A stretch of DNA of 64,000 nucleotides from Candidatus Bathyarchaeota archaeon (GCA_005888745.1 VBBS01000027.1:55045-119044); one strand, 5' to 3'. Positions 34,424-63,456 are shown, counted from the stretch's first letter. Program-made: numbers and translations. The notes: generated from the letters alone by a model not told the origin.

Positions 34424-35578
34424 ATGGTCGAGGAGAAGTTCGTCGTAACCCCTTGGGAGGTCAAGGGGGCGGTCGATTATGACCGACTGATCCGGGACTT
34501 CGGAACCCAACCGATAGCCGGCCTGCTGACCAAGAGGATGGAGGAGATTATGGGTGATGCTGGCTACCTCATCCGCCGGCACATCTTCTTCTCACACCGA
34601 GACCTCAACCTTGTTCTCGACGACTACTCGAAGGGCAAGGGATTATTCCTGTATACTGGTCGTGGACCTAGCGGTCCGATGCACATTGGCCACATACTCA
34701 GCTTCTACTTCACAAAGTGGCTGCAAGACAAATTTCATTCAAACGTCTACATTCAGATAACGGATGACGAAAAATTCCTTGAGGAGAAGCGGAACCTAAC
34801 CTACGAAGATACTCAACGATGGGCTGTAGATAATATTCGTGAAATTGCCGCGGTTGGCTTCGACCCTGATCGGACTTTCATTCTCCAAGACACGGAGTTC
34901 ATCGGACACGCGTATCCTCTAATTCTGAAAATAGCCCGGCGAGTCAATTTCAGCCTCGCCAAGTCAGTTTTCGGGTTTACTGGCGAGACAAACATCGGTT
35001 TCGCTTTCTACCCATCGATCCAGATTCTTCCAACCCTTCTCGAAAAAAGGCGCTGCCTCATCCCGTCGGCCATAGACCAGGACCCATACTGGAGGATACA
35101 ACGCGACATTGCCGAATCCATGGGATACTACAAGGCTGCTGCCGTTCACAGCAAGTTCCTGCCCCCGCTAACAGGGATGAAAGACAAGATGAGCTCATCA
35201 AAACCCGAGACTGCAATCTACCTCAGCGATGATGACAAGACGGTTCGGAACAAGGTATACCGGTACGCTTTTTCTGGTGGACAAGCGACCAAGGAGGAAC
35301 ATCGGAAGAAGGGTGGAGACCCCGATGTTGATGTTCCCTTCCAGTGGCTCTACATGTTCTTTGAGCCCGATGACAAGAGAATAGAGCAGATACGCGTCGA
35401 GTACAAAAGCGGCCGAATGCTTACAGGGGACCTCAAAGACATACTCATTGAAAAGGTGACAACATTTCTCAACCAGCACCGACAACGTAGAGAGAAAGCT
35501 GGCGACCTCATACATTTCTACAAGAAAGACGGGACGCTTGCACAGGAAATGTGGACTCGTGACTTCAGTAAATCGTAG
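34424..35578 (+). CDS. trpS: tryptophan--tRNA ligase (archaeal/eukaryal type)
   Basis: VTPWEVKG.VDYDRLIRDFG, the HIGH-type PMHIGH and the KMSKS-type KMSSS. Confidence 0.85.
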   Translation: MVEEKFVVTPWEVKGAVDYDRLIRDFGTQPIAGLLTKRMEEIMGDAGYLIRRHIFFSHRDLNLVLDDYSKGKGLFLYTGRGPSGPMHIGHILSFYFTKWLQDKFHSNVYIQITDDEKFLEEKRNLTYEDTQRWAVDNIREIAAVGFDPDRTFILQDTEFIGHAYPLILKIARRVNFSLAKSVFGFTGETNIGFAFYPSIQILPTLLEKRRCLIPSAIDQDPYWRIQRDIAESMGYYKAAAVHSKFLPPLTGMKDKMSSSKPETAIYLSDDDKTVRNKVYRYAFSGGQATKEEHRKKGGDPDVDVPFQWLYMFFEPDDKRIEQIRVEYKSGRMLTGDLKDILIEKVTTFLNQHRQRREKAGDLIHFYKKDGTLAQEMWTRDFSKS

Positions 35579-41263: not shown

Positions 41264-41956
41264 TTGCTCACCGAGTCGCAGTCAGAGATGCTTGGGATAC
41301 TGTTCGGAGATGGGTCGATGTCTGAGAATCACAACTCCGTTCAGATCGTCATAACCGGTCACAAATTCGATGACGTAGAGTACCTAATTGGCCGCGTAGG
41401 TCCGATGTTCGCGGAACTCTTTGAAATGCCCCTCAAGGTACATCTAGTGAAAGATGAAAATACGATGATCCTCTACGCTTACTCCAAACGAATTGCCCTG
41501 ACCCTTCACGAATGGGGAATGCCTTTTGGCCGAAAAAAACTGGCCTGGCTCACACCGCACGTCGCATTGGATGAAGTATCTTTCGTCAGAGGCTTATTCG
41601 ACACAGATGGCTGTGTCTATCGCAAGTATGGCCCTTATTTGCAAATCCAGTTTAAGTTCGCTTCCCTTTCGCTCCTTGAGTACGCGAGGGAGTGTCTGGT
41701 AAGACTCGGCCTGAATCCCACATCGATCAGGTGCGACGATACGAAGTTCAGGTTCTATCTCAGCAGACAAGCCGAGGTAGACCATTTCTTTAGGGTCGTA
41801 GAACCCAAGAACCCAAAGCATCTTAATCGTTTCCAAAATGCTTCTCGGAATCGGTCCTACCGCCCATACACACATCGTCCTGAAGCACTCAGAAGAATTG
41901 GAAACCAACCAAGCCTTATAGGACCAATTCTGTGGAAAACACACTCGGTGGGGTAA
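41264..41956 (+). CDS. free-standing LAGLIDADG homing endonuclease (double-motif)
   Basis: Two motifs: MLGILFGDGS and VRGLFDTDGC. It ends 27 nt upstream of the tRNA-Trp gene. Confidence 0.8.
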   Translation: MLTESQSEMLGILFGDGSMSENHNSVQIVITGHKFDDVEYLIGRVGPMFAELFEMPLKVHLVKDENTMILYAYSKRIALTLHEWGMPFGRKKLAWLTPHVALDEVSFVRGLFDTDGCVYRKYGPYLQIQFKFASLSLLEYARECLVRLGLNPTSIRCDDTKFRFYLSRQAEVDHFFRVVEPKNPKHLNRFQNASRNRSYRPYTHRPEALRRIGNQPSLIGPILWKTHSVG

Positions 41957-41983
41957 CTAAGGAAACCTTTCGACATAGGGCTT

Positions 41984-42164
41984 GGGGCCGTAGTCTAGCC
42001 AGACCCACTCCGGGTCCTAGTAAGGGACGACGACGGGCTCCAGAATCTATGAAACATGCACACCGACCAATATCGAGGGATGAGGAAATTCGGGAGCGCG
42101 TGAAGATACCCGTAGACGAGGGACTCGGCGGATGTCGTGGGTTCAAATCCCACCGGCCCCACCA
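41984..42164 (+). tRNA. tRNA-Trp (anticodon CCA) interrupted by three putative introns; CCA end encoded
   Basis: Acceptor GGGGCCG (41984-90) pairs with CGGCCCC (42154-60). The T arm is GTGGG-TTCAAAT-CCCAC. The anticodon arm is ACGGG (42033-37), loop CTCCAGA, and CCCGT (42109-13). A cloverleaf results only if about 22 nt (D-loop, ~42001-42022), 64 nt (37/38, 42044-42107) and 18 nt (45/46, 42116-42133) are removed. Confidence 0.75.
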
Positions 42165-42619
42165 GTGTAGGGCAAATCGTCAGGGACTGGAAAGATCAGG
42201 ATCTCCTCAGCACAGACTTTGGGTCTAACCATGGCTCTTCAATCCGCCTTCGAGTCTGTTGAGGAATGAATCAATGTACTGCCGTGCGATCCCCCAATCA
42301 AAACGGCTGAGAGAGTCCGATCCGGCCCCGTGAGGACGCGTGTCGCATTGTCATCGATTCTAAGCTAGGTTCACGTAGAATGTCTCGGTCCACGTAAGCG
42401 AGTCCATGATGATTTTCAACTCAATACTGCCCGTTGTCTTGTCTGCTTTTGTGGCGTTCCATCTAGCATTCTGAACCACGAGCAGGAGTGCGTCCCAAAC
42501 CTTCTCAAAGGCGTGGGCAAATCTACCTTCTTTTCTAAAGGCAACTTCTCACATTGGGCCTGCAACCTGGCAATAAACTCACACCCCATCGTCTCCTCAA
42601 TGCTCGGGGCAAATTGAAC

Positions 42620-63006: not shown

Positions 63007-63456
63007 TTGATCATTCCTTGTGAAGTTGCAGCGAAATCCGTCATCCCCGCACTACGGGCAATGATAGCTCGAGAGCTGATAGAAGACTATGGAATGAAAC
63101 AGGAGCTCGTCGCAGAACGACTGGGAATTACACAAGCAGCAGTGAGCAAATACAGACACCAGGTTCGCGGAGAAGCAATAGATTTGGGAGCATCATCAGA
63201 GGTCCGTCAGATGAGTAGAGATATAGCCTCCACTCTTGCAAGCAACCCGAGCCCGCTGGAAGTGTCAAGAAAGCTGTGTCAAGCCTGCACAGATATCCGG
63301 GCTTTAGGCCTCATGTGCGAGACCTGCAGGAAGGTCGACCCTGGGTGGGATGTCGAGCATTGCACGATTTGCTTTGGACATCACAGCTGCGCAGAGATTG
63401 TGAGTATCGAAACCAGCAGCATTGCAAAGTACAGAAAGATACCGATTCGACAATAA
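63007..63456 (+). CDS. archaeal HTH transcriptional regulator (COG2522-like) with C-terminal Cys cluster
   Basis: IPCEVAAKSVIPALRAMIAREL..YG..Q..VAERLGITQAAVSKY, then CQAC..C..C..C..C. Confidence 0.6.
   Translation: MIIPCEVAAKSVIPALRAMIARELIEDYGMKQELVAERLGITQAAVSKYRHQVRGEAIDLGASSEVRQMSRDIASTLASNPSPLEVSRKLCQACTDIRALGLMCETCRKVDPGWDVEHCTICFGHHSCAEIVSIETSSIAKYRKIPIRQ

Follow-up and report, generated by a model that had tools for sequence, protein, structure and literature searches.

The intron of archaeal pre-tRNA-Trp is the textbook case of a functional tRNA intron, one that guides the methylation of its own host, and it was defined in Euryarchaeota. To my knowledge, the literature on Crenarchaeota has noted only that the consensus boxes are missing there and that some complementarity remains. 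In Haloferax volcanii and Pyrococcus the intron guides Cm34 and Um39 (PMC4090602; PMC7994747; PMC6313347), and the introns concerned are the 105-nt intron of H. volcanii and Pyrococcus sR50 (Clouet-d'Orval 2001; Singh 2004; reviewed in PMC4090602 and PMC7994747). The 65-nt tRNA-Trp intron of Sulfolobus solfataricus has no consensus C/D boxes and forms a very stable circle (Danan et al., 2012; PMC3326292), and it carries two stretches of 7-bp complementarity, one to position 34 and the other to position 39 (PMC3326292). This form without terminal boxes has been noted already, and its internal boxes are not described in the accessible literature. Finally, tRNA genes with several introns and with non-canonical bulge-helix-bulge introns are recorded in Thermoproteales and other Thermoproteota (Sugahara 2008; Marck and Grosjean 2003, both as cited in PMC4090602).

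The locus described here is a tRNA-Trp gene in a stretch of archaeal DNA of 64,000 nucleotides, which was analysed whole and is called the window; positions are counted from its first letter. On comparative grounds the long intron of this gene is best regarded as descended, in reduced form, from the box C/D guide intron of archaeal pre-tRNA-Trp. Comparison with its relatives shows that the internal C'/D' motif and the antisense element have been retained, whereas the terminal box C has disappeared and so has the D' guide to position 39. The parts of the gene and of this intron, all on the plus strand, are the following.

41984-42164, plus strand: tRNA-Trp(CCA) gene with three introns and an encoded CCA (ARAGORN with introns allowed, and in-silico splicing)
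41984-42000, 42023-42043, 42108-42115 and 42134-42164, plus strand: tRNA-Trp exons (the spliced exons fold)
42001-42022, plus strand: D-loop intron, 22 nt (read from the sequence; its excision is required for the cloverleaf)
42044-42107, plus strand: canonical 37/38 intron, 64 nt, putative degenerate box C/D guide (ARAGORN; homology to tRNA-Trp introns)
42116-42133, plus strand: variable-loop intron, 18 nt (read from the sequence; its excision is required for the cloverleaf)
42033-42046, plus strand: antisense target, made up of the anticodon stem's 5' strand, the loop to G37 and the first three intron nucleotides
42045-42060, plus strand: former D' guide region, hairpin UAUG-AAA-CAUG, with no box C and no complementarity to the 3' splice junction (the most variable part of the clade alignment)
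42061-42064, plus strand: box D' (CCGA), followed by CC (conserved GA at the aligned position)
42077-42086, plus strand: box C' region GGGAUGAGGA, with two overlapping registers (comparison with relatives)
42088-42097, plus strand: core antisense AUUCGGGAGC, homologue of the D guide, pairing with G31 to intron nucleotide 3
42099-42103, plus strand: D-like CGUGA (by-eye alignment to GGAGCG followed by CUGA in complete introns)
42100-42107, plus strand: bulge-helix-bulge of the canonical intron, 3' strand (pairs counted over 76 sequences)

The three-intron tRNA-Trp gene of the window escapes default tRNA and Rfam scans, which is a matter for annotation: default ARAGORN and Rfam at gathering thresholds report no tRNA and no RNA family anywhere in the window, and ARAGORN detects the anticodon arm with the 64-nt 37/38 intron (42044-42107) only if introns are permitted. 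Once the three introns are removed in silico and the four exons joined, the cloverleaf is clean. The bulge-helix-bulge of the D-loop intron has CUAG (41995-98) paired with CUAG (42017-20) as helix H, at four of four positions, and GACCC (42002-06) paired with GGGUC (42012-16) as h'; that of the variable-loop intron has CCGU (42110-13) with GCGG (42128-31), again four of four, and CGAG (42117-20) with CUCG (42124-27). Relatives without the D-loop intron read AGCCAGGGA in the D loop, and in one of them (L135), whose 5' half has no intron, the mature D arm is identical to that of the window. The variable-loop insert, of 18-25 nt, is found in all 123 of the 123 clade members. In the minimum-free-energy fold of the whole precursor, CCGGGUCCU of the D-loop intron pairs with GGGACUCGG of the variable-loop intron; because many relatives carry GAGAGACUCGG or have no D-loop intron, this pairing is taken as coincidence.

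The nearest relatives in the genome collection are the MAGs 'Crenarchaeota archaeon 13_1_40CM_3_52_10/17' and 'Candidatus Bathyarchaeota archaeon BA_21'. Its tRNA-Trp gene shares with the multi-intron genes of Thermoproteota the presence of three introns, each bulge-helix-bulge-like, with 22 nt in the D loop and 18 nt in the variable loop, but this likeness concerns the host gene and not the guide, and the host here belongs to a mesophilic lineage from soil, akin to these MAGs.

The comparison set holds about 170 distinct tRNA-Trp introns. A pattern scan of the genome collection for tRNA-Trp genes with introns of 45-75 nt gave 97 distinct introns from many archaeal phyla (L007-L126), and a metagenome scan gave 119 loci of the soil clade to which the window belongs; counted with three MAGs and the window itself, the loci of this clade yield 76 distinct introns. 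The complete introns, from Archaeoglobi, Thermococci and Thermoplasmata, run in the order box C, a 12-nt D' guide (…ACGGGUCUG), box D' (CUGA), a short loop, box C' ([AG]UGAUGA), a 12-nt D guide (…UGGAGCG), box D (CUGA or AUGA) and a tail of about 8 nt that ends in GAAGAG and forms the bulge-helix-bulge. In these introns the fifth nucleotide upstream of D faces C34 and the fifth upstream of D' faces C39, which is the system already published (PMC4090602; PMC7994747; PMC6313347). A second group, from Thermoprotei, other Bathyarchaeia and Hadarchaeota, is without the terminal C and D and keeps NNGA-CC … (GG)GAUGA with both antisense elements, in agreement with the description of the S. solfataricus intron by Danan et al. 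(PMC3326292). The window aligns to the C'-guide part of the complete introns with identical spacing. Taken together, the alignments show a graded series, from complete C/D introns through an internal motif with two guides to an internal motif with one guide.

The likeness to the euryarchaeal intron extends to the host gene, the 37/38 position, the position of C', the presence of D', the antisense duplex from G31 to intron nucleotide 3 (i3) and the facing of C34 by the eighth nucleotide after C'. The window differs from it in having no terminal box C, in the CGUGA at D that is fused to the bulge-helix-bulge strand, in its tail after GGAG (11 nt versus 14-18 in complete introns), in the loss of the D' guide to position 39 and in the mismatched A36, and it is missed by the profile of complete introns. 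With the Sulfolobus-type introns (relatives L008-L124), which give its best profile match, it has in common the absence of terminal boxes, the internal NNGA-CC ... GGGAUGA and an anticodon-loop antisense at a fixed distance from GAUGA. However, these introns keep the position-39 antisense and an A36-U pair, and the window has neither, whereas the window has a second GA (the AUGAGGA register) and the D-like CGUGA, which most Thermoprotei are without.

The antisense element is real and not a product of chance. An earlier note, made from the sequence, had described a 10/13 Watson-Crick pairing of 42087-42099 (AATTCGGGAGCGC) antiparallel to 42035-42047 (GGGCTCCAGAATC), and this can be read directly from the sequence, with mismatches at G30 (42036), A36 (42042) and intron nucleotide 4 (42047). 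When the intron was shuffled 20,000 times with its dinucleotides preserved, 10/13 was reached in 0.24% of trials against the target named in that note and in 1.6% against any 13-nt stretch covering C34. A longer duplex is possible between 42033-42046 and 42088-42101 (12/14 pairs), and within the core, from G31 to i3, nine of ten positions are paired, the single internal mismatch being at A36. The anticodon CCA occupies 42040-42, so that C34 is position 42040; it pairs with G42094, and the G at 42092 faces A36 (42042). The same note had placed C34 at the fifth or sixth position upstream of a D-like box, which holds and depends on where the box starts: G42094 is the sixth nucleotide upstream of GUGA, or the fifth if the box begins at C42099.

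The limits of the window's duplex coincide exactly with those of the family (G31 to i3). Across the 96 introns from outside the soil clade the comparison gives a clear case, at the level of sequence, for compensatory evolution of this ten-position duplex: G37 is paired with the guide in 93/96, i1 in 92/96, i2 in 91/96 and i3 in 88/96, the last three with 3-6 pair types each, and A36 is paired in 91/96; intron nucleotide 4 is paired in just 18/96. Among the 76 distinct introns of the soil clade the element hardly varies, save for the base that faces A36, which is G in 48, A in 23, C in 5 and U in none, and is therefore paired in 0/76. Because the antisense element scarcely varies, covariation within the clade is nearly nil and not significant alone (44 of 500 shuffles reach the observed value), and the only informative pair is that of i1, with A-U in 71, G.U in 4 and G-C in 1. 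The distance from C' is fixed: the partner of C34 is the eighth nucleotide past C' in every one of the complete C/D introns (49/49) and in 74/76 of the clade, and in the window it is the eighth past AUGAGGA. The earlier note had suggested a divergent form of the archaeal tRNA-Trp box C/D guide, and the shared antisense boundaries, box spacing and C34 register support this.

From the 5' splice site onwards the intron consists of a variable 17-nt segment (42044-60), CCGA-CC, a variable spacer of 8 nt, GGGAUGAGGA, the antisense element (from 42087/88 to 42097/98), CGUGA and AGAU, which abuts the 3' splice site. Across the 76 clade introns only 8 of the 31 columns that run from GGGAUGA to the 3' end are variable, and six of these have a single base common to at least 90% of the sequences. 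Upstream of this block, D' excepted, variation is wide, with free change in the 5' half and between D' and C'; the contrast is taken as a sign of selection on the block. The varying positions of the block are, at C', the two Gs upstream of GAUGA (A in a few) and the middle base of AUGANGA (G, C, A or U); past C', the first base (A, or G in rare cases) and the second (A, G or U); in the antisense element, a U/C that pairs with intron nucleotide 1 and the base that faces A36; and, at the 3' end, the first base of [G/A]UGA and the base that faces U33 in the bulge-helix-bulge.

The box C' region contains two overlapping registers, GGGAUGA (42077-83) and AUGAGGA (42080-86, a 6/7 match to RUGAUGA). 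GAUGA is invariant in 27 terminal-box-less introns, and GGGAUGA is the sole register kept in Thermoprotei; the soil clade reads A-U-G-A-N-G-A, with N alone variable. Both registers are conserved, and each is able to form G.A pairs with CCGA (G-GA-U-GA-G-GA, tandem G.A). With AUGAGGA as the box, a pairing of GG (42077-78) with the CC that follows D' is possible, and GAU would then supply the 3-nt bulge that a proper k-turn has. AUGAGGA at 42080-86 and GUGA at 42100-03, preceded by C42099, are present where the earlier note had placed them. Its reading of AUGAGGA as box C has to be revised, in that the word occupies the internal C' place and overlaps the more widely conserved GGGAUGA; comparison with relatives argues that AUGAGGA is an internal box C' and not a terminal box C. 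Nor does its dismissal of a second box pair in the 5' half stand, for a D' exists (CCGA, 42061-64): the aligned position holds CCGA in 62 of the 76 clade introns, CAGA in 12 and CUGA in one, which is xxGA in 75/76, and other terminal-box-less lineages have NNGA-CC there.

The terminal boxes and the second guide have fared differently. A search of the intron's 5' portion, subclade by subclade and at 12 nt upstream of D', found no terminal box C in the window or in any of the 76 clade introns, and in the window AAUCUAU occupies the expected position. Because a box C is nowhere in the intron, a terminal k-turn is impossible. The D-like CGUGA, which is CUGA with one extra G, lies at the box D position of complete introns and has no box C partner. 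A candidate across the junction of a circularised intron (42107-42044), GUGAAGA, matches the C box at 6/7 and lies 21 nt upstream of CCGA; it was rejected, the spacing being wrong and a D box still missing. Where relatives have kept the D' guide intact, C39 is paired with the fifth nucleotide upstream of D'. In the C39 register there is one contiguous pair in the window versus 6-9 in about 34 of the 76 clade introns; the subclade of the window has thus lost its guide to position 39. From this decay it follows that parts of the guide system are dispensable, and from the placing of C39 at the fifth nucleotide in the sister introns that the C'/D' unit is a guide platform in the clade.

The archaeal bulge-helix-bulge (hBHBh') has two 3-nt bulges with a 4-bp helix between them, cleavage after the second nucleotide of each bulge, and flanking helices. 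The canonical intron has a relaxed version of it, with the 5-bp anticodon stem as h, three of four pairs in H and two base pairs in h'. In 42100-07, GU pairs with intron nucleotides 2-3 (h'), GAAG and C32-C35 make up H, whose C34.A mismatch is found in many other archaea as well, and AU together with A38 makes the 3' bulge. Over the 76 sequences 90.8% of the bulge-helix-bulge cells are paired, versus 27-47% with the partners slid. The motif accounts for the last 8 nt of the conserved block and no more. In the related intron L115 the same GUGAAGAU terminus lies 9 nt apart from the antisense element. Since GUGA forms the bulge-helix-bulge strand and L115 has it apart, the D-like word is explained by splicing, and on this comparison GUGA need not be a box D. 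The near match to box D seen in the earlier note lies at the D position, and it overlaps the bulge-helix-bulge strand. As to folding, the guide conformer (-18.6 kcal/mol) lies near the minimum free energy (-19.3 kcal/mol); the strict bulge-helix-bulge conformer (-9.7 kcal/mol) lies about 9 kcal/mol above the minimum and excludes the guide conformer.

Profile searches separate the two kinds of intron. A sequence profile built from 27 terminal-box-less introns, none from the soil clade (R1), has as its top match in the 64-kb window, on both strands and with filters off, the gapless segment 42075-98 (9.2 bits, E 0.089, on a rough calibration). A profile of 30 complete C/D introns (R2) leaves the intron undetected at E <= 10. 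The C/D families of Rfam all stay below threshold, sR33 coming highest with 12.4 bits versus a gathering score of 37, and a Rfam scan of 41900-42260 at E <= 10 yields, besides sR33, only spurious or partial matches. As R1 detects the intron and R2 and Rfam do not, it is of the reduced and not of the complete type. Rejection by such models had been named as evidence against a guide, and here it comes from Rfam and the complete-C/D profile, while the terminal-box-less profile matches, weakly. A strict regular-expression scan found no canonical C/D sRNA in the window, and a six-frame motif scan found no fibrillarin, L7Ae or Nop5 encoded in it.

What, then, might the retained parts do? That the intron still guides Cm34 methylation of its own tRNA is the leading proposal, which I regard as evenly balanced. 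It is favoured by the homology and spacing, the conserved block, the D' guides of sister introns, the R1 match and a guide conformer close to the minimum free energy; against it stand the missing terminal box C, the extra nucleotide in the D-like word, the unpaired A36, the decayed D' guide, the silence of Rfam and R2 and the near absence of covariation within the clade. The C'/D' motif would fold into a k-turn or k-loop, either in the unspliced precursor or in the excised intron, which is probably circular and could act in trans. L7Ae would bind the motif and Nop5-fibrillarin would join next; the antisense element would open the anticodon stem-loop and present C34 for 2'-O-methylation (Cm34). 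The RNA would then switch to the less stable bulge-helix-bulge conformer, from which the splicing endonuclease would excise the intron. The conserved A36 mismatch and the missing terminal k-turn imply that such a guide would be weaker than the euryarchaeal one, or differently measured. The mismatch lies two positions from the target ribose, which counts against a guide. Some support comes from L7Ae RIP-seq of S. acidocaldarius, in which a single tRNA was enriched, Saci_0066. Its gene is 132 nt long and is annotated with 'many reads of intron' (PMC5539422, Table S1); to judge from that length it would be tRNA-Trp.

Several other explanations have to be weighed against a working Cm34 guide. The one that comes closest, though it seems to me distinctly the less probable, is that the intron descends from a C/D guide and no longer guides methylation, its C'/D' motif and antisense element being kept for another reason; possible roles are the folding or protection of the anticodon arm, the timing of splicing by competition with the bulge-helix-bulge, or stabilisation of the excised circle by L7Ae. 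A relic would suit the loss of the terminal box C and of the D' guide, an A36 mismatch that has become fixed in the clade, and the fact that the guide conformer excludes the splicing one, with some 9 kcal/mol between them. In H. volcanii, moreover, the intron and its methylations can be deleted without lethality (PMC4090602), and therefore guide function can decay. Archaeal single-site C/D complexes are active in vitro with loss of site specificity (PMC1635284), a result that tells against the guide as much as it favours a relic. A mere folding helix, however, would need neither the canonical distance from C' to the partner of C34, exact in 74/76, nor the GA dinucleotides of both boxes, which are kept, and the sister lineages keep a D' guide in the right fifth-nucleotide register.

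Two less probable readings do not invoke a C'/D' unit. The model of the earlier note, in which AUGAGGA is box C, (C)GUGA is box D and a single k-turn holds a guide of 12-13 nt that methylates C34, is supported by its spacing: there are 12 nt (42087-98) between AUGAGGA and C42099, C34 faces the fifth nucleotide of this spacer from its 3' end, and RUGANGA and [G/A]UGA are both kept in the clade. I nevertheless think it improbable, for in every complete relative the box upstream of the guide is C', which pairs with D' and not with D, and a D' (CCGA) is present and conserved here; GUGA, besides, is explained by the bulge-helix-bulge and stands 9 nt from the guide in L115. The k-turn would also need a stem with complementary flanks, and there are none: the only candidate, AUC (42072-74) with GAU (42105-07), was rejected as its pairing is not kept in relatives. 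The last explanation is that nothing here is special, that the intron pairs with the anticodon as any archaeal 37/38 intron must to make its bulge-helix-bulge, and that the box-like words arose by chance. It is true that 37/38 introns always pair with the anticodon loop, that UGA and GA are frequent words and that Rfam offers no match. But the bulge-helix-bulge uses another segment, the 3'-terminal 42100-07, and the ten-position antisense is a second pairing, compensatory across archaeal phyla and confined to tRNA-Trp introns. Given also a shuffle P of 0.002-0.016, the ranking of the site as first in the window by R1, and boxes that are kept in 76 relatives while neighbouring positions change, this explanation is very improbable; that the conservation is an artefact of near-identical genomes is argued against by the variable 5' halves.

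The guide reading also has a bolder form, which I offer as doubtful speculation: that tRNA-Trp introns with C'/D' only are a distinct, single-k-turn architecture of 2'-O-methylation, in which the ribose is measured from C', the helices of the pre-tRNA replace the terminal k-turn and, in the window's lineage, there is one guide with an obligatory A36 mismatch. Measurement from C' is proposed because the distance to the partner of C34 is fixed even in introns that have no D box. Perhaps the A36 mismatch is what lets the precursor of a mesophile switch to the splicing conformer. Such an architecture would span Thermoprotei, Bathyarchaeia, Hadarchaeota and the soil clade.

To what has been described before, the window adds a variant that is reduced further, from a mesophilic soil lineage: a single guide is left, A36 is always mismatched, the D-like word has merged with the bulge-helix-bulge strand, and the host gene has three introns. 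It raises the question of whether a single C'/D' k-turn and a correctly spaced antisense element are enough for site-specific methylation, and, set beside its roughly 170 relatives in the graded series, it shows which parts of the guide are dispensable.

The order of the two antisense elements is reversed in the tRNA-Trp introns of five loci from DPANN-type MAGs (Woesearchaeota, Micrarchaeota and Undinarchaeota; L020, L036, L125, L013 and L054): the internal xxGA box is preceded by the C34 antisense (CUGGAGCG), which comes first, and the GAUGA box is followed by the GGGUC element. A further multi-intron tRNA-Trp gene, at locus L115, has a 70-nt intron that ends in GUGAAGAU, identical to the terminus in the window, and carries CUGA as its internal D' box and GAAAUGA as its internal C' box, with a 9-nt insert separating the antisense element from the terminus. 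A profile of 27 tRNA-Trp introns without terminal boxes, all from outside the soil clade of the window (R1), also gave two sub-threshold matches in the window, at 63034-63053 (-) and 35055-35088 (-) (7.3 and 7.0 bits; E 0.35-0.42). Both are words containing GGGGAUGA and are probably due to chance.

The scaffold holds an ORF of the LAGLIDADG_3 family, 27 nt downstream of whose end the tRNA-Trp gene begins, and at least two further LAGLIDADG-like genes:

41264-41956, + strand, LAGLIDADG_3 ORF of 230 aa (Pfam E 6e-9)
same scaffold, LAGLIDADG-like gene of 301 aa, flanked by a thiolase gene and a zf-ChsH2 gene
same scaffold, LAGLIDADG-like fragment of 88 aa, adjoining a PQQ-repeat protein gene

The tRNA-Trp gene of the window (41984-42164) contains three introns, in the D loop, at 37/38 and in the variable loop. 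When the complete precursor is folded to its minimum free energy, the D-loop intron (CCGGGUCCU, 42010-42018) forms 9 bp with the variable-loop intron (GGGACUCGG, 42120-42128). I regard this pairing as probably coincidental, because in many relatives one partner is missing or the sequence GAGAGACUCGG occurs.

Intron content was compared across the window and loci L047, L062, L063 and L127-L245. The variable-loop intron (18-25 nt) is present in all 123 clade members, and it is in the 5' half of the gene that close relatives diverge. Some have a D-loop intron of 22-30 nt, like the window, others have an intron of 26-46 nt located after about position 26, and some, L135 among them, have no intron in this half. 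These differences among close relatives point to tRNA-Trp introns having been recently gained, lost or slid within a single clade.
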